Source: Minisyncoccia bacterium (GTDB lineage Bacteria; Patescibacteriota; Minisyncoccia; Phycocordibacterales; UBA918). Taken from it: DNA of 64,000 bases. Of this stretch, positions 4,408 through 23,175 are shown piece by piece. The stretch lies in assembly GCA_046598345.1 (NCBI GenBank), contig JBKJIT010000003.1:5089-69088 (forward strand), in the 5' to 3' direction. Under the pieces are notes generated by a model, which was not told the origin of the DNA, made no database searches, and saw only the letters and a program-made list of their open reading frames with translations. Position 1 is the first letter of the stretch. Each line of letters opens with the position of its first letter. A program made the translations under genes and the position numbers.

Positions 4408-4461
4408 TGTACATTTTTATAACGCTGGAGGAGAACATGCGTTCTGGTGTATCATGACTCT

Positions 4462-5028
4462 ATGATTGCGCGCCTTACGGGAGAAGTGGTTGATGCAAAG
4501 CTCACGCATATAGTGCTCAGCGTTGGTGGTGTGGGGTATCTTGTCGCTGTCCGTCTCACCTCAGCATTTGAAATAGGTGGCCTCGTGACTCTCCACACCC
4601 ATCTAGCGGTGCGCGAGACTGCCCTCGATCTGTACGGATTTCTGACGCAAGACGAACTCCGTATGTTTGAGCACCTTATTAAGCTTCCGAAGATTGGTCC
4701 AAAGTCCGCGATGCAGATTCTCTCCCAAGCGGAACTTACCCTGCTCCGGCAGGCAGTACGAGAAAACGACCCGACATACCTCTCGAAGATGTCGGGCATT
4801 GGAAAGAAGAGCGCCGAAAAAATTGTACTCGGCCTCAAAGACATTTTTGAAGGTGACGATTTTCTTATGAGTGAAACCCATGGCGGAAAAGACGCAGACG
4901 TTATTGATGCACTTATTGCGCTCGGGTACTCAGAACGTGACGCGCGTGCTGCGCTCCAGAAGCTTCCCGCGGAAATCACGGATACGAACGACCGTATAAA
5001 ACACGCACTCAAATTTGTAAGTTCTTAG
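4462..5028 (+). CDS. ruvA: Holliday junction DNA helicase subunit RuvA
   Basis: MIARLTGEVV... N-terminus, helix-hairpin-helix middle region, C-terminal LIALGYSERDARAAL motif. Alternative GTG start at 4447. Confidence 0.85.
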   Translation: MIARLTGEVVDAKLTHIVLSVGGVGYLVAVRLTSAFEIGGLVTLHTHLAVRETALDLYGFLTQDELRMFEHLIKLPKIGPKSAMQILSQAELTLLRQAVRENDPTYLSKMSGIGKKSAEKIVLGLKDIFEGDDFLMSETHGGKDADVIDALIALGYSERDARAALQKLPAEITDTNDRIKHALKFVSS

Positions 5029-5410: not shown

Positions 5411-5968
5411 TCAAATCCTAAAATATTTCCGCAGATGCTTGTCGTTTTCAATGTAATCTGACGTAAGATAAAGCACATCTGAACTGAGTCCGAGGTGTGA
5501 TTTTAAAAGTAGAATAAAATCATCACACGCATACGGATACACCCATACACTTTTCTGAAGCATGTAAAATCCGTACAATTTCATACCTCGACGAAGCTCC
5601 TTTCTCACTTTCTCTTTCGTATTCGGTACGTCAAAAACAACAACTCTCCACCTCTCATCCCATTTCTTTTTCTCGGAAGATTCTATCCTCTGATGCCTGA
5701 GGGCAATTTCCCACTTACCCTTCTTTGTAACCTCAAGTACTTTCTCGCCGCCCTCATTGTGTGTCTGTTTAATAAGCCCTGATCTGAGCAGTGATTCTAT
5801 GTTCCTCTTGATAGATTGTCCGGGTGAATACTTCTTACGCTTAAAAGTTCCCCCCAGAAGTGAAAGTGCATTCGGTGCCACTACAGCGATAGTTACCACC
5901 CCGAGGGTACCAATAGTCATAAGAACCCCTTCTCCAATTTTGCCTAGTTTTTGTCGCGTTAGTGACAT
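5411..5968 (-). CDS. PaaX-like C-terminal domain protein with N-terminal TM helix and winged-helix-like segment (putative membrane-anchored regulator)
   Basis: Motif KKKWDERWRVVVFDVPNTKEKVRKELRRGMKLYGFYMLQKSVWVYP matches the PaaX_C / Cas2-like W-D-x-x-W...F-D-V-P...L-R...G-F...L-Q-x-S-V-W pattern. Hydrophobic stretch VLMTIGTLGVVTIAVVAPNALSLLGG. An alternative start at 5920 (MTIGTL) has a better SD (GGAGAAGGGG). Confidence 0.45.
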   Translation of the reverse strand: MSLTRQKLGKIGEGVLMTIGTLGVVTIAVVAPNALSLLGGTFKRKKYSPGQSIKRNIESLLRSGLIKQTHNEGGEKVLEVTKKGKWEIALRHQRIESSEKKKWDERWRVVVFDVPNTKEKVRKELRRGMKLYGFYMLQKSVWVYPYACDDFILLLKSHLGLSSDVLYLTSDYIENDKHLRKYFRI

Positions 5969-6207: not shown

Positions 6208-7497
6208 ATGGAATCTTTGCTTTACCACTTAAAACGACTTTTCCCAACTTCGTTATTTAAGCTCGTGCAGCCTCCTTACCACTACCTCCTCGCAGTACTC
6301 GGAGCGATGTACTATCAATTCCCCTCAAAAGAGATCACCGTTATCGGAGTAACCGGAACGAAAGGAAAATCAACGGTCGTTGAACTTGTAAACGCACTTT
6401 TTGAAGCTGACGGGAAACGAACTGCACTCGCGGGAACAATTCGCTTTAAAATTGGGGAGAAAAGCGAACGAAACCTTCACAAGATGACTATGCCGGGAAG
6501 ATTTTTCATGCAGAAGTTTCTCAGGGATGCGGTGAATGCTGGGTGCGACGTTGCAATCGTCGAGATGACTTCAGAAGGCGTGCGTCAGTCCCGACATAAA
6601 TTCATTCACCTTGATGCGCTCATATTTACAAATCTTTCACCTGAACATATTGAATCCCACGGCTCGTATGAGAAATATATTGCGGCAAAACTAGAACTAG
6701 CGCGGGCGCTTGAGGAGTCAAGGAAGCGCCCGCGCTACGTGATCGCGAATAGTGACGACGCGCAGGGCGCGGCGTTCCTCCGTGCGCGAGTAGAACACGC
6801 ACTCCCCTACAGTCTCGATGATCTTGAGCTCTACACATTAAACCGTGAGGATGTGAGTCTCGTGATAGATGGTACGACGATTCGCGTTCCGTTGGTTGGT
6901 CTTTTCAATATTTATAATGCACTAGCGGCAATCGTAACTGCGCGCGCATTTGGCATTCCACTTAAAACCATACTCGGTGCGTTTGCAAATTTAGCTCCCA
7001 TTAAAGGCCGTGTTGAACGCTTTAAATCTCCGAAGGGTGCGGCACGAAAAATTACTGCGGTAGTCGACTACGCACATACTCCGGATTCACTGGAGAAGCT
7101 CTACCAAGCATTTGAAAAAGAAAAGAAGATTTGTATTCTCGGCAACACAGGAGGAGGAAGAGACAAGTGGAAGCGTCCAGAAATGGGACGAATTGCCGGG
7201 GAATACTGCGAGCGCGTGATCCTCACGAACGAAGATTCATACGATGAAGATCCGGCAAAAATTGTTGACGAAATGGCACGCGGAGTTGAGGATGAATCAA
7301 AAGTAACTATCATCATGGATAGACGTACGGCAATTCGCACTGCACTTGAAGAAGTGCCAGACGGGGGCGTCGTGCTTATTTCCGGGAAAGGTACTGACCC
7401 GTACATCATGGGTCCTCACAACACGAAAACACCATGGAGCGACGCGAAGGTGGTGGAGCAAGAAATGGCTGCGCTCTTTGGTGAGCAGGCTACGTAA
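6208..7497 (+). CDS. Mur ligase family protein (MurE-like UDP-N-acetylmuramoyl-tripeptide synthetase, short form)
   Basis: P-loop GVTGTKGKST, DYAHTPDSLEKL signature typical of MurE, C-terminal Mur ligase domain ILGNTGGGRDKWKRPEMG. Confidence 0.65.
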   Translation: MESLLYHLKRLFPTSLFKLVQPPYHYLLAVLGAMYYQFPSKEITVIGVTGTKGKSTVVELVNALFEADGKRTALAGTIRFKIGEKSERNLHKMTMPGRFFMQKFLRDAVNAGCDVAIVEMTSEGVRQSRHKFIHLDALIFTNLSPEHIESHGSYEKYIAAKLELARALEESRKRPRYVIANSDDAQGAAFLRARVEHALPYSLDDLELYTLNREDVSLVIDGTTIRVPLVGLFNIYNALAAIVTARAFGIPLKTILGAFANLAPIKGRVERFKSPKGAARKITAVVDYAHTPDSLEKLYQAFEKEKKICILGNTGGGRDKWKRPEMGRIAGEYCERVILTNEDSYDEDPAKIVDEMARGVEDESKVTIIMDRRTAIRTALEEVPDGGVVLISGKGTDPYIMGPHNTKTPWSDAKVVEQEMAALFGEQAT

Positions 7498-7529: not shown

Positions 7530-7991
7530 CTAGGCGAAGTGGAACAAAATAATCCCCGCCGCGACGGAAACATTGAGCGATTCTTTTTTACCCTCCATCT
7601 TGATGTGGAGCACGTGGTCACACACTGCACAGATTTCCTGCGGCACTCCCTCTATTTCATTTCCTAATATGAATGCCACGTCGAGCACGATCCCTACGCT
7701 TCGATACTCCTGCGAACGTTCGTGTTGCTCAATCGCAACAATGGAGACCCCTTCGGCTTTCAGTTTCAGGATCACCGCTTCAGTAGTTTCCGCGTACTCC
7801 CAAGGAACTGTTTCAGTCGCGCCGAGGGATGTTTTTTGTATATCTTCCCGAACCCGTCCAAAACGATCTGTAGGACACGGCGTGTACCCTGTGAGAAAAA
7901 TCTTTCGAATGCCTGCTCCGTCCGCACTTCGAAAAATAGACCCTACGTTATGGGCACTGCGTATATTATGAAGAATGACGTATCGATTCAT
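7530..7991 (-). CDS. SpoU/TrmH-family RNA 2'-O-methyltransferase
   Basis: ILHNIRSAHNVGSIFRSADGAG start and SPOUT C-terminal motifs (LGNEIEGV, SLNVSVAAGIILF). Start taken at MNRYV (7991) rather than the track 8033. Confidence 0.75.
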   Translation of the reverse strand: MNRYVILHNIRSAHNVGSIFRSADGAGIRKIFLTGYTPCPTDRFGRVREDIQKTSLGATETVPWEYAETTEAVILKLKAEGVSIVAIEQHERSQEYRSVGIVLDVAFILGNEIEGVPQEICAVCDHVLHIKMEGKKESLNVSVAAGIILFHFA

Positions 7992-8006
7992 GATGGTACA
8001 CTGTAC

Positions 8007-8363
8007 ATGATGTTGAATCCGTTTCCCATTCAATTCCTCGCGCTCCTCGCATATGCACTTTTACGTATCTGTGTTGGAGGAATTCTTGCGTACCGTGCTA
8101 CTTCCCATCTTCGCGAGAAACGAACGCTGGTTCAGGCCTTTGGCGCACTCGAGCTTGTCTCTGGGCTCATGCTGATTGTGGGCTACTACACGCAAATTGC
8201 AGCACTCCTATCGGGAGGAGTTGCACTCCTTGCGCTCTCGGTCCACGCTGTTCGATCGGCACTCAGTATGGGAGGGCGGCAATTTTACCTCCTTCTTTTT
8301 GTTGCTTCCCTTTCCCTTTTCATCACGGGAGCGGGATTCTTTGCCTTTGATTTGCCTATCTAA
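8007..8363 (+). CDS. DoxX-family small membrane protein
   Basis: 118 aa with 3-4 TM helices; LALLAYALLRICVGGILAY... The track ORF (7722..8363) is over-extended through the SpoU gene. Confidence 0.5.
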   Translation: MMLNPFPIQFLALLAYALLRICVGGILAYRATSHLREKRTLVQAFGALELVSGLMLIVGYYTQIAALLSGGVALLALSVHAVRSALSMGGRQFYLLLFVASLSLFITGAGFFAFDLPI

Positions 8364-8394: not shown

Positions 8395-9204
8395 ATGACT
8401 GACGTCTTATACTATTTACTCCATGGAATGCTTGCTCCCTCGCCCGTTTTTCTCATTGGGTACGTTATTGTAACTTCGCTTCTCACCCTCCTCGCGGTGT
8501 CCTGTTACCTACACCGCTCTCAAACTCACCGTGCTGTGAAATTCATTTCTCCCATAAGTCATGTTTTCCGGCTTATTCTTTGGCTTTTTACCGGAATGGT
8601 GACGAAGGAGTGGGTTGCGGTCCACAGGAAGCATCATGCATCGAACGACACCCCTGAAGATCCCCACAGCCCTCGTCATTTTGGTCTTAAAAAAATCCTT
8701 CTTGAAGGTGCTGATATTTATCGCGACGCAGGAAAAAATTACCCACACCTTATGGATGAGTACGGCGAAGGCACTCCTGATGATTGGATGGAGCGAAACG
8801 TGTACTCAGGAAAGCTTCGCAATTGGGGTATCCGTGTAACGCTTGTTGTTGAGCTTGCTCTCTTTGGCCTTCCTGCACTCATTATTTGGCCGATTCAAAT
8901 GCTTGTGATCCCCATAATGGCTGCAGGATTTATTAATGGGATCGCGCACGTCTATGGGTATCAGCGATATAAAGACGGGATGCCGAGAGGTAATGGAAAA
9001 GTATACGAACGTATTGGAGATGCACGAAACGTACCGACATACGGTCTTGTCGTTGGAGAAGAGTTTCACAACAACCACCACGCTGAGCAGGGCAACTACA
9101 AATTTTCACATGCATGGTACGAATTCGATCTCGCTGGAACACTTATTGAACTCATGACCTGGATAGGCTTTGCGTGGGTGCCAACCCGACCAAAAAACAA
9201 TTAG
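8395..9204 (+). CDS. Membrane fatty-acid (acyl-lipid/acyl-CoA delta9-type) desaturase
   Basis: Three histidine boxes: HRSQTH, HRKHHASNDTPEDPH, HNNHHAEQ. Multiple TM segments. Confidence 0.7.
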   Translation: MTDVLYYLLHGMLAPSPVFLIGYVIVTSLLTLLAVSCYLHRSQTHRAVKFISPISHVFRLILWLFTGMVTKEWVAVHRKHHASNDTPEDPHSPRHFGLKKILLEGADIYRDAGKNYPHLMDEYGEGTPDDWMERNVYSGKLRNWGIRVTLVVELALFGLPALIIWPIQMLVIPIMAAGFINGIAHVYGYQRYKDGMPRGNGKVYERIGDARNVPTYGLVVGEEFHNNHHAEQGNYKFSHAWYEFDLAGTLIELMTWIGFAWVPTRPKNN

Positions 9205-9355: not shown

Positions 9356-9428
9356 CCGCCCATAGCTCAGCCGGTAGAGCAGCTCCCTTTTAAGGAGAAG
9401 GTCCTTGGTTCGATCCCAAGTGGGCGGA
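9356..9428 (+). tRNA. tRNA-Lys (anticodon UUU)
   Basis: Cloverleaf by hand: acceptor CCGCCCA/TGGGCGG, D-stem GCTC/GAGC, anticodon loop CTTTTAA, T-stem CTTGG/CCAAG with TTCGATC loop. No encoded CCA. Confidence 0.85.
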
Positions 9429-9437
9429 CTCACAAAA

Positions 9438-9476
9438 ACCAAAAGGACTAGTTCATATGAACTAGTCCTTTTGGTT
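9438..9476 (+). terminator. Perfect hairpin ACCAAAAGGACTAGTTCATATGAACTAGTCCTTTTGGT after tRNA-Lys
   Basis: 18-bp inverted repeat followed by TTT. Confidence 0.55.
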
Positions 9477-9651
9477 TAGCATGCAAACTGCTTTGCACGC
9501 GACGCATGTCCGAACCGGAATGATGTTTTTTGCCCCGAAAAACGAATGAGGCGGGATCGCGAACACTTAGGAGCGAAGCGAGTTAGTGATTCGTGATGAC
9601 AAAAGATTGAAACCTGAATAGTTCATGTACTCAAAAATTCCGAAGGCTGTT

Positions 9652-10062
9652 TTACTCCTCCCGCTTAAAATACTTGTACAAACTCGCAACACCGACAATC
9701 CGGAGCGTTCGAAGGATTCGTATCGCGCGAATTGCTTTGAGAAACGTAAAATTTCCAACCCCAATATACGTCGGTAGAATAGAGAGAAAATCAACAATAC
9801 CAAAAAAGCTGGTGAAATACCGAATTTTTTTTGCTGCTGTCCAAATTCTCGCTGCATACTCCACGGTAAAAATAATTGTCGTTATCCATTGAACGAAGAA
9901 AATCGTGAGTGGGTACGCCTCTCTCGCGAAGTGTTCAAAAAGAAACGCAATAAGCGAAACGAGTGCAGCAATGGCAAGTACTCCCTGCACACCCGCAAAA
10001 TACTTTGACGTTGGTACATTTAGGGACTCAGTAGTCGCATTTTTGAAGGCTGAAACATTCAT
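9652..10062 (-). CDS. Stand-alone voltage-sensor domain (S1-S4) protein without pore domain
   Basis: Four TM segments. S4-like FLKAIRAIRILRTLRIV with Arg at every third position. ATG overlaps the holA stop (ATGA at 10059-10062). Confidence 0.55.
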   Translation of the reverse strand: MNVSAFKNATTESLNVPTSKYFAGVQGVLAIAALVSLIAFLFEHFAREAYPLTIFFVQWITTIIFTVEYAARIWTAAKKIRYFTSFFGIVDFLSILPTYIGVGNFTFLKAIRAIRILRTLRIVGVASLYKYFKREE

Positions 10063-10760
10063 AGAGAAAGAGCCCATTTTTCCAGCGCTATATCCATATC
10101 CCGTTTCCCCAAATGCGCATCATGGTAGATGGTAAGAAGTTCCCTTGAGATTACATCCACTTCTCCCGGCTTAAATGATGCGAGCGCCCGCTTTGCTTTC
10201 GAGTACACAAAGGGTTTTTGTTTTGCTTCGTCCGCACTCTTTGTCTTCTCCGCAAGCCGGAGCATTTTCACCTGCCAATAGAGGGTTCCTAGAACTTCTT
10301 CCGGAGAAAGCCCTTCACGCCATGCCTGCATAAGAAGGAGCCAGAGCGTTTTCTTATCCCGCTCGAGGAATGCATTAGCGAGCCCAAATGCATTGAAACG
10401 TTCCTTTAATGCGCCGCTGTATTCGGTACACGCATCGGCATGTTTTGCGAGCGCTTTTACCTCCGCCGCTTTTAAAGCCCCCTCAATACAAATAAAAGTG
10501 TGCGCAGATTCGTGTAAGAGTTTTGCTTCCTGAGTAAGTTCTTCAAATGCATCTGGCTCCTCAGAGAGCGTATCGAGTATGATAATCTCACATCCCTGGA
10601 AGAGCGACATCCCGGTCGCCGCATTCGCGAGTATTCCTGGTTCATACGTTTCAGAAGTAATAGTTCGTGTGATCGTTTCTTCCGTCTCCAAAACATGCGC
10701 CTCTTTGAAAGCTTTTTCTCGAACTGTAATGACGTCACTTCCCCAGAAAACTCGAAGCAT
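10059..10760 (-). CDS. holA: DNA polymerase III delta subunit (HolA), short form
   Basis: MLRVFWGSD N-terminus and overall delta-subunit-like helical architecture. Confidence 0.65.
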   Translation of the reverse strand: MLRVFWGSDVITVREKAFKEAHVLETEETITRTITSETYEPGILANAATGMSLFQGCEIIILDTLSEEPDAFEELTQEAKLLHESAHTFICIEGALKAAEVKALAKHADACTEYSGALKERFNAFGLANAFLERDKKTLWLLLMQAWREGLSPEEVLGTLYWQVKMLRLAEKTKSADEAKQKPFVYSKAKRALASFKPGEVDVISRELLTIYHDAHLGKRDMDIALEKWALSL

Positions 10761-10773
10761 GATAGGGTAAAGT

Positions 10774-11193
10774 ATGCGCTATCTTACGTATTTCCTCAAT
10801 CTCCCCTGGACGCTCATTGGGCTTTTGAATGCGCTCATCGCTGTTCCCATAAAAATGGAATTTCGAAATGATGCGATTATTTTTCATACGAAAACTGTAG
10901 GACTTGTTGCCTTATACCAGCCAAAAGGGGCTGGGGTAGCCCTTGGTAACGTTGTGATCGTAAAACGCGATCTTGCTATAAAAATCCTTGATCATGAGCT
11001 TGTGCACATTGAGCAATTTATGCGCGAACCGTTTATTCATCCTTTTTTATACTCGATAGAACTCTTAAGAAAAGGATATTTCAACAATAAATATGAGTTC
11101 GAGGCCTATGAACGTACTGACAGTTGGCCAGACTATATCAAAAAAGACAAAGAAAATTTTCTTAAAAATTCCAAAGTAATACGGATCAAATAG
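10774..11193 (+). CDS. Hypothetical protein with HExxH (HELVH) motif, possible small zinc peptidase-like protein, N-terminal TM
   Basis: DHELVHIEQ motif; hydrophobic N-terminus. Confidence 0.35.
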   Translation: MRYLTYFLNLPWTLIGLLNALIAVPIKMEFRNDAIIFHTKTVGLVALYQPKGAGVALGNVVIVKRDLAIKILDHELVHIEQFMREPFIHPFLYSIELLRKGYFNNKYEFEAYERTDSWPDYIKKDKENFLKNSKVIRIK

Positions 11194-11208: not shown

Positions 11209-11310
11209 GATGCTAAATAGATGAGATGCGCGGCGGCAAGTCGTGAAAACGTGAGGCGTATTTTTATACGATGAACGTTTGAACGACGTAGCCAACAAAG
11301 CAGATCGCTA
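11209..11310. repeat. Inverted-repeat element copy A: ATGCTAAATAG ... CTATTTAGCAT (11-bp perfect terminal IRs, about 80-nt interior with internal hairpins)
   Basis: Lies between convergent genes. Related copy at 16988-17056 shares the IRs plus GAGATG and ATGAACG..AAC interior motifs. Confidence 0.5.
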
Positions 11311-13713
11311 TTTAGCATTAAATCGAGACATTTCCTCCCAATTAGGGCCAACCTTAACCTCAGCGCTAATCGGCACCCCCTTCCCCTCTTCATTCGTAAG
11401 TACTCCCTCCATAATCTCTTTAAGCTTTGGCACAATTTTCTTCGTATCACTCTTTTTAATTTCAAACACTAGTTCGTCGTGCACCTGAAGCATCATGTGC
11501 ACGCGATCGTTTAGTTTTTCCTTCGAAAGATACTCATGAATCCGAACCATCGCAATGCGGGCAACGTCAGCAGCGGTTCCCTGCACAGGAGCATTAATTG
11601 CCATGCGTTCTGCCTGCGCGCGAATAAATGGCGCACTCGAGTTCATACCAGGAAAATGACGGCGACGTCCGAAGAGGGTCTCGGTAAAGCCGTGACGCCT
11701 CGCATACGCCTTCGTTTCCTCCAAATACTCCGCAAGTCGTGTGAACGTATTAAAGTACGCAGTGAGAAATTCCTGTGCTGCAGCACGCGACGTCCCTTCA
11801 CCTAAGTTCGCCTTGAGAGCATTCACACCCATGCCATAGAGAATACCAAAATTGATAACCTTCGCCTGCCTTCGCATATCAGGTGTCACCTCATCTTCAC
11901 TCACTCCAAAGACGCGAGACGCAACCCCACGGTGCACATCCTCCCCGCGCTTGAAAATCTCCATGAGCTTTTCGTCGTGAGATAAAATCGCCGCAATACG
12001 AAGTTCAATTTGTGAGTAATCGATGGCGACCAAATCAAATCCTTCTTCTGCCATAAATGCACGTCTAATTGCCCTCCCTTCGTCAGTGCGAATTGGAATA
12101 TTTTGGACACTCGGATTTTCTGAAGCCATGCGTCCAGTGACCGCACCAGCTTGGAGAAACGTGGGGTGAATGCGTCCATCTTTCTGCACCACATCGGGAA
12201 GTGTGTCCACGTAGGTCGAGACAAGTTTCTGAAGTTCACGGTAACGGAGAATTTCCTTAATGATGGCGTGTTCATCAATAAGTTTCTCAAGCTCAGATTC
12301 GCGCGTCGATCGCTGACCCATTGCTGTCTTTTTTTGATTCTTAGGTTTAAGCCCTAACGTGTCATAGAGAATCTCACCCAGTTGTTTCGGTGAATTGATG
12401 TTGAACGTAACTCCAGCATGTCCATAAATTCTCTCTTCAAGGATAGTGAGTTCCTTATGAAATTTCTTTGAAAGTGTTTTAAGATACGGAACATCGATCG
12501 TTATACCAACCTTCCGCATACTGTCGAGCACGTCCATGAGTGGAAGTTCAAGCGTCGTATACAGTGCTTGGAGTTTTGGGTCTGCTTCCAAATCAGCAAA
12601 AATTTCCTTCCGGGCCTCTTCAAACGTAGGGGTTCGATCTTCCGTCCTCCTGTATGAGATAACATCATCAATCGTAGGGCTCGTCATGTCTGAATTAAGG
12701 AGCCAGAGCGCAATCGTAGTTTCGGTGAGTGTGCGAGGATCAACTGATGCCGCTTCAATACTAACCTCTTCTGCCATCACAACCCCAAAGAGAGATTTAA
12801 CGCGCACGCCAAGTGTACGGAACCCCAGTACGCTAAAGAGCGTGAGTACTTTTTCAACATCCAGATTCTCTCGCCACGTGCCTTGTGGAAGTGCGTAGGT
12901 AACTGGTGCATCTCGCCTGATGGTCGCAAGCATTTTTGAAAAGAGCGCCTCTTCTTCACTCGCCTTAAGGAGTTCCACAATACGCGCCTTGATCCCCGCA
13001 TCGAGAAGTGTCTTCTCATTTTTCTTCAGCTTTTTATAGAGGTCTTCTATTGACCCAAAGGCGACAATGAGATCAGTCGCGCTTTTTTCTCCAATTCCTT
13101 TCACGCCAGGAATATTGTCCGACGGGTCTCCTCGAAGTCCTTTGTAGTCGGGGACGAGTTTTGGTCCAAATCCAAATCGCTCTTTCACGAGCTTCTCCGT
13201 GTAAAGAATCGTATCTTTAATTCCTTTTTTTAGCGTGTACACCGTGACTCGCTCACCCTGAACAAGCTGGAGCGTATCCATATCCCCCGACGCAATGATT
13301 ATGCGGAGATCTTTCTCATCCTTAAATTGATGCGCGAGCGTTCCCAAAATATCATCAGCTTCAAAACCAGGGTGTTCGAGAATAGGAATGCCAAACGCAG
13401 CAAACACATCGCGCGAGCGTTCGATCTGACTCACGAGCAAATCATCCGTTTTCGTGCGAGTTGCTTTGTACCCCTCGTAAACCTGGTGACGATACGTAGG
13501 ATCAGGGAGATCAAAACACGAAACAATATAATCGGGTTTCAGTTCTTCTACGATTTTGAGAAGCATTGCAACGACGCCGTAGAGTGCCCCCGTTGGCTCT
13601 CCCGTAGGAGAAGTGAAGTCAGGGAGCGCATGATAGGCACGGTGCAGAATCGCATGCGCATCAAGGAGCACGAGCGTTTTCTTCGCACTTGTTTTTTTAG
13701 CTGTCTTTGTCAT
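11308..13713 (-). CDS. polA: DNA polymerase I (5'-3' exonuclease + Klenow-like polymerase)
   Basis: RRQAKVINFGILYGMG, VHDELVFE and other family A polymerase motifs. Start taken at MTKTAKK (13713), 17-nt overlap with tsaE. Confidence 0.9.
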   Translation of the reverse strand: MTKTAKKTSAKKTLVLLDAHAILHRAYHALPDFTSPTGEPTGALYGVVAMLLKIVEELKPDYIVSCFDLPDPTYRHQVYEGYKATRTKTDDLLVSQIERSRDVFAAFGIPILEHPGFEADDILGTLAHQFKDEKDLRIIIASGDMDTLQLVQGERVTVYTLKKGIKDTILYTEKLVKERFGFGPKLVPDYKGLRGDPSDNIPGVKGIGEKSATDLIVAFGSIEDLYKKLKKNEKTLLDAGIKARIVELLKASEEEALFSKMLATIRRDAPVTYALPQGTWRENLDVEKVLTLFSVLGFRTLGVRVKSLFGVVMAEEVSIEAASVDPRTLTETTIALWLLNSDMTSPTIDDVISYRRTEDRTPTFEEARKEIFADLEADPKLQALYTTLELPLMDVLDSMRKVGITIDVPYLKTLSKKFHKELTILEERIYGHAGVTFNINSPKQLGEILYDTLGLKPKNQKKTAMGQRSTRESELEKLIDEHAIIKEILRYRELQKLVSTYVDTLPDVVQKDGRIHPTFLQAGAVTGRMASENPSVQNIPIRTDEGRAIRRAFMAEEGFDLVAIDYSQIELRIAAILSHDEKLMEIFKRGEDVHRGVASRVFGVSEDEVTPDMRRQAKVINFGILYGMGVNALKANLGEGTSRAAAQEFLTAYFNTFTRLAEYLEETKAYARRHGFTETLFGRRRHFPGMNSSAPFIRAQAERMAINAPVQGTAADVARIAMVRIHEYLSKEKLNDRVHMMLQVHDELVFEIKKSDTKKIVPKLKEIMEGVLTNEEGKGVPISAEVKVGPNWEEMSRFNAK

Positions 13714-14140
13714 ATGTAAATGTTCTCGTACCGTCCTTTTCGAGAATGGTGATGTGAAGTGCATTGACTGGAATAAGACGCGGGATTCGCTCTGGCCATT
13801 CAAGGCAGACGAGATTCGATGGATCCTTCAGTATCTCTTCAAAATTAAGAACGCGCATTTCATCTTCATCATCGACACGATACGCATCAATATGTATGAG
13901 TGTCCGTAAAAAAGTATGCGAAGGAATTGCATGTGTTTTCATTATGACAAACGTGGGACTTGTAATGTGCTCAGTGATTCCCAACTCCCGAGCGAGTGCC
14001 TTTGTGAACGCAGTTTTTCCTGCCCCAAGCTCGCCTCGGAGCGTTATGATCTGTGCAGTTTCCTCCTGCGACAACGATGCCAGCACTTCCCTCGCAACTG
14101 ACGCGAGCGCAGATTCCTCCGTAACCGTATGGGTGACCAT
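13697..14140 (-). CDS. tsaE: tRNA t6A biosynthesis ATPase TsaE
   Basis: GELGAGKTAFTKALARELG ... SPTFVIM. Confidence 0.8.
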   Translation of the reverse strand: MVTHTVTEESALASVAREVLASLSQEETAQIITLRGELGAGKTAFTKALARELGITEHITSPTFVIMKTHAIPSHTFLRTLIHIDAYRVDDEDEMRVLNFEEILKDPSNLVCLEWPERIPRLIPVNALHITILEKDGTRTFTYDKDS

Positions 14141-20892: not shown

Positions 20893-23175
20893 ATGTCGTT
20901 TCTTCCAAAGTGGCTTAGAGCCAACGCAAAAGAGCTCGCCATTGACGCGCTCATTATTTTTTTTGTACTTGGTCTCATCGGGACGGGAGTAGTTTTTCTC
21001 TGGATTTCAACCTTAAACATTCCTGACCTCTCCTCGTTTGAAGAGCGCCGCGTCCTCCAGTCAACTAAAATCTATGACCGCACAGGGGAAGTTCTTCTCT
21101 ATGACCTTCATCAAGATGTTCGCCGCACCATTGTTCCCTACGAAAAAATCTCGCGACATATAAAAAATGCGACGGTTGCCATTGAAGACGATTCCTTCTT
21201 TGAGCACGGTGGGATACGGCCGTTTTCTATTCTCCGCGCTGTAATTGCCAATCTTCAGGGTGGAAACCTTCTTGGTGGACAGGGTGGATCGACCATCACG
21301 CAACAGGTTATTAAAAATTCGATCCTTGAGCGTAATAAAACCCTCACGAGAAAAATAAAAGAATGGATTCTTGCCATTCGTCTCGAGCAAGTGCTCACAA
21401 AAGAAGAAATATTAGGCCACTACCTCAACGAGTCACCGTACGGTGGGACAATTTATGGTGTGGAGGAAGCGAGCCAAACTTTTTTTGGGAAACCAGCAGC
21501 TGACGTAACCTTGGCAGAGGCAGCCTATCTTGCTTCGCTCCCGCAACTTCCCACGTATTATTCTCCCTACGGGTTACACCGAGACGATCTTGAGCTCCGA
21601 AAGAACCTCGTACTTTTGCGCATGAAGGCGTTAGGATTTATTACTGAAGAAGAACATGCGGTTGCGCTTGTCGAAAAGGTGGAATTTAAATCCCAGACAA
21701 CTGGTGGTATTCGTGCGCCTCATTTTGTCTTTTACATAAAAGAACAACTTGCGAGTATGTATGGAGATGAATTCCTTGCAGAGCAAGGATTTAAAGTAAT
21801 TACCACACTCGATTACGAGCTCCAGGAAGAGGCTGAAAAAATCGTACACGACAAAGCACTCGAGAATGAGAAAAAATTTAACGCTGAAAACGGTGCCATT
21901 GTTGCCACTGACCCACAGACCGGGGAAATCATTGTTATGGTTGGTTCACGGGATTATTTCGATACGGAAATTGATGGTAATTATAATATCGCACTTGCGC
22001 TAAGGCAGCCGGGTTCGGCATTTAAACCTTTTGTATATGCAACAGCCTTTAATAAAGGCTATACGCCCGACACTATTCTCTTTGATGTCGAAACACAATT
22101 CTCAACCACCTGTGCGCCAAATGACTTCACCTCAGGTGACAACTGTTATTCCCCACGTAACTACGATGACCGATTTCGTGGGCCCGTCAGCATTCGGAAC
22201 GCCCTCGCACAATCGCTCAATATTCCTGCAGTCAAAACGCTCTACCTTGCTGGTATTCCCGCCTCTATTAAAACGGCACGCGATTTTGGTATCACGACGC
22301 TCACAAACCAGAACCAGTACGGTCTTACGCTCGTTTTAGGGGGTGGTGAGGTACGCCTCGTCGACATGGTGGGCGCGTACAGCGTCTTTGCAAACGAAGG
22401 CATCAAACATGAACTGACCGGGATCCTCCGGATTGAAGATAGTTCTGGAAACACAGTGAGAGAATTTAAATCTGATCCAAAGCGCGTCCTCGATGCTGAG
22501 GTGGCACGAAAAATTTCTGACATTCTTTCAGACAATGTGGCGCGTACGCCACTCTACGGAGCTAATTCGCTTCTCTATTTCCCCAACCGAGACGTGGCGG
22601 CAAAAACCGGAACAACGAACGATAAGCGCGACGCTTGGATTATTGGGTACACCCCGAACCTCACCGTAGGTGCCTGGGCTGGCAACAATGACAATCGCTC
22701 AATGAGTGAGATCTCAGGCCTCATCATTACCCCAATGTGGCGTGCGTTTATGGACGTTGCGCTCGCGAAATATGAGGAAGAAACCTTCACTGAACCCCTC
22801 GCAACCCCATCGGATCTTAAGCCTATTTTACGAGGAGTGTGGTTTGATCCAACTGCGGCGATTACTGGATACCCTTCAGATCCAGACCAGGCTCCAGAAC
22901 TTAACCTTGCGGGTACAATTGGTAGCGCTCACTCCATTCTCTATTATGTAAACAAAAATGATCCAACTGGTCCCTACCCTACAAACCCCGCAAGCGACCC
23001 GCAATTTGCACTCTGGGAATATGGCGTTACGAGATGGAAAGAAGCAATGCTTGGTGCACTTACTCCCCCGGCCACTACCACTGTGGATCAGGGTACCAAT
23101 ACTGATACTACCGATATTGATGCAGAAGAAGATACTGGCCGAAGAAGCCGGAATCGTAACAGCGACAACAACTGA
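20893..23175 (+). CDS. Class A penicillin-binding protein (transglycosylase + transpeptidase)
   Basis: EDDSFFEHGG, GGSTITQQ, SAFKPF (SxxK), SLN, KTGTT motifs. N-terminal TM. Confidence 0.9.
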   Translation: MSFLPKWLRANAKELAIDALIIFFVLGLIGTGVVFLWISTLNIPDLSSFEERRVLQSTKIYDRTGEVLLYDLHQDVRRTIVPYEKISRHIKNATVAIEDDSFFEHGGIRPFSILRAVIANLQGGNLLGGQGGSTITQQVIKNSILERNKTLTRKIKEWILAIRLEQVLTKEEILGHYLNESPYGGTIYGVEEASQTFFGKPAADVTLAEAAYLASLPQLPTYYSPYGLHRDDLELRKNLVLLRMKALGFITEEEHAVALVEKVEFKSQTTGGIRAPHFVFYIKEQLASMYGDEFLAEQGFKVITTLDYELQEEAEKIVHDKALENEKKFNAENGAIVATDPQTGEIIVMVGSRDYFDTEIDGNYNIALALRQPGSAFKPFVYATAFNKGYTPDTILFDVETQFSTTCAPNDFTSGDNCYSPRNYDDRFRGPVSIRNALAQSLNIPAVKTLYLAGIPASIKTARDFGITTLTNQNQYGLTLVLGGGEVRLVDMVGAYSVFANEGIKHELTGILRIEDSSGNTVREFKSDPKRVLDAEVARKISDILSDNVARTPLYGANSLLYFPNRDVAAKTGTTNDKRDAWIIGYTPNLTVGAWAGNNDNRSMSEISGLIITPMWRAFMDVALAKYEEETFTEPLATPSDLKPILRGVWFDPTAAITGYPSDPDQAPELNLAGTIGSAHSILYYVNKNDPTGPYPTNPASDPQFALWEYGVTRWKEAMLGALTPPATTTVDQGTNTDTTDIDAEEDTGRRSRNRNSDNN

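Follow-up and report, generated by a model that had tools for sequence, protein, structure and literature searches.

A pore-less voltage-sensor protein predicted at the holA locus of an uncultured Minisyncoccia bacterium

Hv1, also known as VSOP, is thought to have derived from the voltage-sensor domain (VSD) of an ion channel through loss of the pore. In the human protein an aspartate in the middle of S1, D112, serves as the proton selectivity filter (PMC5092046, and in part general knowledge), and the tryptophan of the S4 motif RxWRxxR is totally conserved (PMC10377628). A second eukaryotic pore-less S1-S4 protein, TMEM266 (HVRP1), is described in PMC6392501 as a functional voltage sensor whose downstream target is unknown. 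Voltage sensors can also be freed in the laboratory: Shaker cut off after S4 (Shaker-iVSD; Zhao & Blunck 2016) folds and responds to voltage, and it passes cations, among which it prefers protons (PMC5092046). For prokaryotes, two recent reviews agree that neither bacteria nor archaea have pore-less Hv channels, and one of them states that every known prokaryotic VSD is accompanied by a pore domain (PMC10377628, PMC13095418). Here we describe a gene in 64,000 nucleotides of a Minisyncoccia bacterium (assembly GCA_046598345.1, contig JBKJIT010000003.1, positions 5,089 to 69,088; hereafter the window) that encodes a 136-residue protein consisting of a voltage sensor alone, its start codon overlapping the end of holA. 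Literature searches on prokaryotic pore-less VSD proteins and on Patescibacteria channels found no earlier description, and naturally pore-less voltage sensors, previously documented only in eukaryotes, would on the sequence evidence be present here in uncultured bacteria.

Profile, structure and genomic context agree that the 136-residue protein is a stand-alone S1-S4 voltage-sensor domain, as an earlier note on this DNA had proposed from the letters alone. The sole Pfam match above threshold is Ion_trans (PF00520; E=8.7e-14, 51.7 bits against a cut-off of 25), which is well beyond chance and covers only profile positions 10-111 of 241, corresponding to S1-S4. A full-length hidden Markov model (HMM) of the family matches in the same partial manner (1.2e-43, model positions 3-131 of 232 only). 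NCBIfam returned only a 23-bit match to an MVP-type K channel model with a cut-off of 300, and a PADLOC scan gave no match. The best phmmer matches in the PDB are to S2-S4 of the Kv-type channels Kv4.2, Kv4.3, Kv3.1 and Kv2.1, with the isolated KvAP sensor also present and no Hv1 chain at E<=1.

The AlphaFold2 (AF2) model, built on a 63-sequence alignment, has a predicted local distance difference test score (pLDDT) of 85.6 and a predicted template modelling score (pTM) of 0.76. It contains the four transmembrane (TM) helices that the note had counted, together with an N-terminal amphipathic helix; the helices span residues 3-15 (S0), 20-45 (S1), 52-75 (S2), 79-84 and 86-100 (S3), and 106-135 (S4 and tail), leaving 19 N-terminal and 13 C-terminal residues outside S1-S4. 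The only acidic residue of S1 is E43, at its outer end. The gating-charge transfer centre is complete, with F65 and E68 in S2 and D91 in S3, accompanied by R72; the first three are invariant in the VSD-only proteins described below and in 198 of 198 relatives with six transmembrane helices (6TM), and R72 is invariant too. The S4-like helix with charges at every third position is likewise as the note described it (K109, R112, R115, R118, R121); these basic residues are unchanged in all seven VSD-only proteins and at least 87% conserved in the 198 6TM relatives, so that the outcome by which the note would have been refuted, assignment to an unrelated four-helix family without conserved S4 charges, did not arise. 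By profile, fold, S4 charges and charge-transfer centre the protein can be assigned to the voltage-sensor domain of the voltage-gated channel superfamily, and it is probable that its S4 moves with membrane potential.

The gene lies on the minus strand and, as the note had observed, its ATG overlaps the holA stop; the junction reads GCT CTT TCT CTA TGA for the end of holA and ATG AAT GTT for the beginning of the VSD gene, whose ATG is one base out of frame with the holA TGA. An in-frame ATG lies upstream at 10077 and would give a product of 141 residues, five more, yet the start at 10062 is favoured, as orthologue alignments begin there and two independent public gene calls give 136 residues. 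Recoding of TGA was ruled out, as long reading frames such as the 831-residue PolA are intact under translation table 11 and the VSD gene itself stops at TAA. A scan for promoters and terminators between holA and the VSD gene found nothing exceeding shuffled expectation.

No pore domain follows the sensor, as the note had stated. Three-frame translation of the sequence 3' of the gene up to the neighbouring tRNA gave only stop-ridden frames, none long or hydrophobic, and tblastn with the closest 6TM relative, P0002, matched the window only with P0002 residues 9-116. An HMM of the S5-P-S6 region of 57 relatives found no match among all six-frame open reading frames (ORFs) of the window (best E=0.76). 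Run on other loci, this pore HMM detected no pore in L001, L003, L004 and L088-L091, and its positive controls scored 97 bits (L002) and 59 bits (L085). The single TVGYG-type K+ filter motif that a search returned, at 21206, lies in a frame full of stops and was taken as chance. A frameshift, readthrough or split gene was ruled out because, up to the tRNA, no frame encodes a hydrophobic or pore-like stretch, and a 6TM voltage-gated cation channel of the Kv or BacNav type was rejected on the grounds that the ORF ends 13 residues past S4 with no pore downstream or elsewhere in the window. The question of a pore-domain gene at another site, which the note had raised, is answered in the negative for 64 kb of the 341.7-kb contig.

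To gather the relatives of this protein, 1.84 billion representatives were searched exhaustively with HMMER, giving 1538 matches at E<=1e-3, and profile searches of a 5.8-billion-cluster collection added further members; both were needed, as a word-index search with the single protein returned only itself and one 6TM relative. Nearly all matches are 6TM proteins of about 220-250 residues, and those that carry names are ion transporters of the Patescibacteria group, Parcubacteria, Paceibacterota or Curtissbacteria. GTDB species representatives, a set without the window genome and the orthologues, yielded only ordinary Kv channels at no more than 45% identity. A scan of JGI metagenomes with the pattern FT[VIL]EY was uninformative, giving generic channels only among the matches listed and missing the known orthologue L003.

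Six further proteins have the truncated architecture. The closest to the window protein is P0003 (134 residues, 54-58% identical), followed by P0010 (132 residues, about 40-49% depending on method) and by P0034, P0267 and P0274 (138 residues each), which are 32-37% identical to the window protein and 75-80% among themselves; P0031 (111 residues) is truncated, with less sequence ahead of S1. The genomic surroundings of five of the six could be retrieved. The order TsaE-PolA-holA-VSD is found in L003 (JGI), and in a second JGI contig a gap of 212 nucleotides past the VSD gene is followed by unrelated minus-strand genes. In L088, L089 and L090 (ENA, JGI) and in L174 (Logan) the order continues past the VSD gene with a convergent tRNA-Lys, SpoU, Mur ligase and RuvA. 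In all, 10 contigs drawn from ENA, JGI and Logan carry P0034, and the short contigs L004 and L175 preserve the end of the upstream ORF, real stops, and non-coding DNA past the VSD gene. The ATGA overlap with holA recurs in L085, L088, L174 and L175; in L003 a TAA stop is followed by a 7-nucleotide gap. Because the holA sequences flanking the VSD-only genes are only 45-49% identical to that of the window (48% in L003, 45% in L088), these loci represent deep lineages; at least four divergent lineages have kept the VSD-only protein in the same syntenic position.

Ratios of nonsynonymous to synonymous substitution (omega, Nei-Gojobori method, NG86) within the P0034 subgroup are 0.077-0.099 (dS 1.5-2.3), close to the 0.085 of holA from the same genome pair, and the value for the window against L004 is 0.21. 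The saturated comparison of the window with L003 gives a pN of 0.38 for the VSD gene and 0.34 for holA. Purifying selection on the VSD gene is therefore about as strong as on holA. In the alignment of the seven proteins 25 columns are invariant, including F65, E68, R72, D91, K109, R112, R115, R118 and R121. These data bear on whether the gene is merely the decaying remnant of a 6TM channel, or an artefact of assembly or gene calling. The closest full-length relatives are indeed 6TM channels, and many short metagenomic Ion_trans entries are contig-end fragments or frameshifts (P0013, P0015, P0184, P0202). However, real stops followed by non-coding DNA and other genes occur in six independent assemblies, the length holds at 132-138 residues, omega stays at 0.07-0.21 as in the adjacent holA, no residual pore sequence is left, and translational coupling is preserved. 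Selection, synteny and the invariant sensor residues thus exclude a relic or artefact; this highly improbable reading is effectively refuted.

Other, independent pore-less VSD genes came to light at unrelated loci. P0016 (149 residues, L091:4001-4450) has an inositol monophosphatase gene on one side and rplS on the other in four contigs. P0131 (142 residues, L086:4001-4429) comes from a metagenome-assembled genome of Woesearchaeota, a DPANN archaeon, and from a second sample; 79 nucleotides past its gene is an ORF of 119 residues (L086:4508-4867) that looks four-helical and not pore-like. Several further candidates of 130-145 residues stop 10-22 residues past S4, and each needs a check of its context because so many short database entries are fragments or frameshifts. 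The VSD-only architecture is not unique to the holA locus.

The likely origin of the window protein is indicated by L085, where a holA orthologue (50% identical) is followed, across the ATGA overlap, by a 237-residue 6TM protein, P0005 (L085:1587-2300). P0005 aligns over its full length with Kv subunits, and its C-terminal half is modelled by AF2 as S5, pore helix and S6. A 6TM relative thus stands, in another genome, where the window has its holA-coupled VSD gene, which makes loss of the pore probable, and because L085 shares the linkage to holA, that linkage is older than the loss. Neighbour-joining trees built on the sensor region place the VSD-only proteins together, though with weak support for the group as a whole, and next to the P0005 subfamily, with bootstrap values of 99% for P0003 with the window protein (P0001) and 100% for the P0034 subgroup. 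In the more distant L002, holA (26% identical) is followed directly by tRNA-Lys, and the 6TM gene is about 4.5 kb away.

The subfamily of P0005 (with P0017, P0018, P0025, P0065, P0080 and P0022) comprises 6TM proteins of 221-237 residues in which the voltage sensor is well conserved. The pore HMM gives them 59 bits, 14 bits or no match, whereas 196 other relatives have a median of 100 bits, and they share with the tails of the VSD-only proteins a post-S4 motif, RIVG-x-x-N-(I/L), to be compared with GVASLYKYF, GLANLPRYF and FADFINLSK. These proteins may be intermediates toward pore loss. On the most economical reading, the route would have begun with a gene for a 6TM channel of Patescibacteria type coupled to the end of holA, whose pore module would then have diverged; S5-P-S6 would finally have been deleted, once or twice at the same locus, with the sensor kept under strong constraint.

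The mainstream 6TM 'ion transporter' family of Patescibacteria, of about 235 residues (P0002 at L002:6001-6654; P0006, P0154, P0266-P0376), has no TVGYG-type filter and carries past its pore helix the sequence SIPxGMWWAxxxxxGG(I/V)(P/S)xxxP. The family appears large, with 1899 matches at E<=1e-10, and no paper describing it came to light.

What distinguishes the VSD-only proteins from their pore-bearing relatives is the charge pattern at the two ends of the sensor. The outer S2 glutamate at position 58, equivalent to Shaker E283, is present in 198 of 198 pore-bearing relatives. In the VSD-only proteins it is replaced by glutamine (window protein, P0003, P0010), histidine (P0034, P0267, P0274) or aspartate (P0031). 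The outer S1 glutamate of the LETVP motif, found in 184 of the 198, is kept in the window protein and P0003, falls in a gap in P0010 and is glutamine in the P0034 subgroup. On the inner side, the basic residues past R121 in 6TM relatives (L-A-K-x-x-R, the K5 and R6 positions) are gone. In the activated Shaker sensor E283 coordinates R4, and Hv1 His140, part of a Zn2+ site at the gating-pore mouth, aligns with Shaker F280, three residues before E283 (PMC5092046). The extracellular negative cluster and the innermost charges have therefore been remodelled around untouched core charge-transfer machinery, and of all the observations this pattern hints most strongly that the new function resides in the sensor's hydrated outer crevice.

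The P0034 subgroup (L088:4001-4417, L174:5001-5417, L175:304-720) has a histidine in the S1-S2 loop and two more where S2 reaches its outer end (FHW-T/I-HW). Of these two, one replaces the glutamate of position 58 and the other lies three residues before it, at the position aligned with Hv1 H140 in PMC5092046. The cluster may be a metal- or pH-sensing site.

We therefore prefer to think of the protein as a functional free-standing S0-S4 sensor that arose by pore loss from a holA-coupled 6TM channel, with a flux of protons or cations as its likeliest output, although our confidence in this combined reading stops just short of even. The output itself, a voltage-dependent flux through the sensor's own gating pore, is suggested by analogy and is put forward tentatively. 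It is favoured because there is no effector domain, only tails of 13-19 residues, and no conserved partner gene; because the class of residue that has changed sits at the mouth of that pathway; and because Shaker truncated after S4 behaves in this way. Glutamine or histidine in place of the outer S2 glutamate would tune or gate the mouth of the pathway. The stronger proposal, that an Hv1-like proton or cation pathway was reached independently in ultra-small bacteria by deleting a Kv-type pore, with the change of the outer glutamate being adaptive, seems rather unlikely.

Several observations weigh against a conducting sensor of this origin. The S4 arginine ladder is complete and the Phe65 plug intact, a combination that is non-conducting in intact channels, and the sequence offers no counterpart of the Hv1-type S1 aspartate. 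If, as in Shaker-iVSD, a proton leak opened at negative voltage, a small cell would lose its proton-motive force without tight control of the leak. Pore loss need not create a channel, because TMEM266 is a pore-less sensor for which the abstract of PMC6392501 reports no conduction. Monophyly of the VSD-only proteins is weakly supported, with bootstrap values of 63% for the trio of the window protein, P0003 and P0010 in a small tree and 13% for all six in a large one. The pore searches cover 64 kb of the contig, and a separately encoded pore or a 6TM paralogue may lie elsewhere.

The complete arginine ladder and intact plug would fit a sealed, non-conducting sensor that acts in trans, by contacts within or next to the membrane, on another membrane protein encoded elsewhere in the genome, be it a pore-only channel (making a split channel), a transporter, an enzyme or a 6TM paralogue. 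Voltage sensors are modular, TMEM266 is pore-less with no conduction reported, and the abstract of a 2026 preprint describes functional co-assembly of the voltage sensor of a voltage-sensing phosphatase (VSP) with the pore-only channel Kir2.1; in the present family the conserved N-L-x-K/R element of the tail, left over from the S4-S5 linker, could serve as the contact site. However, no pore-like or conserved partner gene lies near any orthologue, where the constant neighbours are only holA, PolA and tRNA-Lys, and none of the 64 kb encodes a pore domain. The nearest 6TM relatives show a decaying pore and not its relocation to a separate gene. Furthermore, the VSD-only proteins have a degraded form of the outer S1 LETVP motif, which is strongly conserved in 6TM relatives, and this speaks against retention of the old interface. 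Action in trans is the main alternative, which we doubt but rate nearly as probable as flux through the sensor itself.

The remodelled outer charges can also be turned against voltage sensing altogether. The activated state would be destabilised by loss of the outer acidic residues, which affects the S2 glutamate in all six and, in the P0034 subgroup, the S1 glutamate as well, and the genomic context indicates no function, as might be expected if the VSD fold were kept as a structural scaffold or as a lipid- or ion-binding module, comparable to the charge-poor S1-S4-like domains of TRP channels. Against this stands the invariance of the five S4 basic residues, Phe65, Glu68, Arg72 and Asp91 at overall identities of 32-54%; conserved buried charges are hard to explain without charge transfer, and a non-voltage role is improbable.

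The suggestion in the earlier note that the protein is Hv1-like stands for its architecture, a pore-less S1-S4 protein, and fails for family membership. In favour of kinship one could cite, beyond the architecture, the histidine of the P0034 subgroup at the outer S2 mouth (FHWTHW), at the -3 position that aligns with Hv1 H140 (PMC5092046). However, the window protein has no S1 aspartate, no S4 tryptophan or RxWRxxR motif, and, with 13 residues past S4, no C-terminal coiled coil; it nests among bacterial 6TM channels and has no Hv1 chain among its PDB matches at E<=1, and both reviews cited above report no Hv1 in prokaryotes (PMC10377628, PMC13095418). Descent from within the Hv1 family is barely credible.

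Table 1. Features of the VSD gene and its immediate surroundings in the window.
Feature	Position	Strand	Basis
Pore-less VSD protein gene, 136 residues	9652..10062	minus	ATG at 10062, TAA stop 9654-9652
ATGA start/stop overlap of VSD gene and holA (translational coupling)	10059..10062	minus	sequence
S0, N-terminal amphipathic helix, residues 3-15, then family motif N-P-x-S-K-x-F	10018..10056	minus	AF2 and alignment with 6TM relatives
S1, residues 20-45, YFAGVQGVLAIAALVSLIAFLFEHFA, without Asp; outer end FEHF (E43, H44)	9928..10005	minus	AF2 and alignment
S2, residues 52-75; Q58 in place of outer Glu; F65, E68 (charge-transfer centre); R72	9838..9909	minus	AF2 and column counts
S3, residues 86-100, motif SFFGIVDFLSILP, invariant D91 and P97	9763..9807	minus	AF2 and alignment
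S4, residues 106-123, FLKAIRAIRILRTLRIV; K109, R112, R115, R118, R121, spacing three	9694..9747	minus	alignment
13-residue cytoplasmic tail GVASLYKYFKREE, remnant of the S4-S5 linker start	9655..9693	minus	motif common with nearest 6TM relatives
Intergenic spacer, 222 nt, without pore-domain remnant in any frame	9430..9651	.	three-frame translation, tblastn, pore HMM
tRNA-Lys(ttt), convergent, bounds the locus	9356..9429	plus	ARAGORN, Rfam
Short holA (DNA polymerase III delta), 233 residues, conserved upstream neighbour	10059..10760	minus	TIGR01128 match and synteny

Beyond the VSD gene (Table 1), the window holds the same genes as the orthologous loci, read in reverse: RuvA (4447-5028), Mur ligase (6208-7497), SpoU (7530-8033), tRNA-Lys, VSD, holA, PolA and TsaE. 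The tRNA is the sole Rfam match. The holA ORF matches TIGR01128 with E=2e-13 and 50.4 bits, below the 80-bit cut-off and over model positions 196-315 only, the C-terminal part, and has a weak match to Pfam DNA_pol3_delta_C (E=0.033). Its linkage to the VSD gene most likely reflects co-transcription in compact genomes and not a functional tie to replication.

Gene content differs between the loci at several points. In L003, L088-90 and L174 holA directly follows polA. In the window and L001 an opposite-strand ORF of 139 residues (10774-11193, plus strand) with an HExxH motif (DHELVHIEQ) sits between them; it is absent at that position in L003, L088 and L174, and has no Pfam, NCBIfam or PADLOC match. 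Between tRNA-Lys and SpoU the window carries a fatty-acid-desaturase-like gene (8395-9204, plus strand; PF00487, 8.6e-11) and a weak DoxX-like ORF (within 7722-8363, plus strand), neither of which has an equivalent there in L088 or L174; a desaturase would be surprising if the organism is a lipid-synthesis-poor Patescibacterium. Between RuvA and Mur ligase, on the minus strand at 5411-5968, lies a gene for a 185-residue protein with a PaaX central Cas2-like domain (PF20803, 5e-20; weak CRISPR_Cas2). The PolA ORF (11308-13803, minus strand; 831 residues from a TTG) overlaps the TsaE ORF (13697-14140, minus strand) by about 100 nucleotides; the public gene call gives 801 residues (L001), so that polA probably begins at an ATG further downstream.

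A conserved and selected VSD protein of 132-138 residues is a counter-example to the generalisation that prokaryotic voltage sensors are always accompanied by a pore, and one for which apparent evolutionary intermediates are at hand in the 6TM relatives with fading pore modules at the same locus. It offers a minimal natural isolated sensor for asking whether pore loss alone creates a gating-pore conductance, as the truncation of Shaker suggests, and the family bears both on the role of the universally conserved outer S2 glutamate and on how Hv1-type proteins could have originated. At 136 residues the protein would also be a compact scaffold for structural work or voltage indicators. It points, moreover, to membrane-potential sensing in reduced-genome, probably symbiotic, bacteria.

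Among described systems, the closest in sequence and structure are the VSDs of Kv-type 6TM channels (PF00520; Kv4.2, Kv3.1, Kv1.2, KvAP), with which the window protein shares the fold, the S2 phenylalanine and glutamate, the S3 aspartate and the S4 basic residues at a spacing of three; its nearest relatives are the 6TM 'ion transporters' of Patescibacteria of about 235 residues. Unlike these channels it has no S5-P-S6, its linker runs for only 13 residues, the outer S2 glutamate is glutamine, and K5 and R6 are lost. Voltage-sensing phosphatases such as Ci-VSP fuse their VSD to a PTEN-like phosphatase, whereas the window protein has no effector domain of any kind. The likeness to TMEM266 is one of architecture: that protein is eukaryotic, has partially structured cytoplasmic termini (PMC6392501) and forms oligomers, compared with termini of 19 and 13 residues here. 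With Hv1/VSOP the window protein shares the condition of a natural pore-less S1-S4 protein, and with Shaker-iVSD that of a Kv sensor ending just past S4, although Shaker-iVSD is a laboratory construct with the wild-type outer glutamate, and the window protein is natural and long-selected, with that glutamate replaced. By analogy with these two systems, it may work in an Hv1-like or Shaker-iVSD-like manner.

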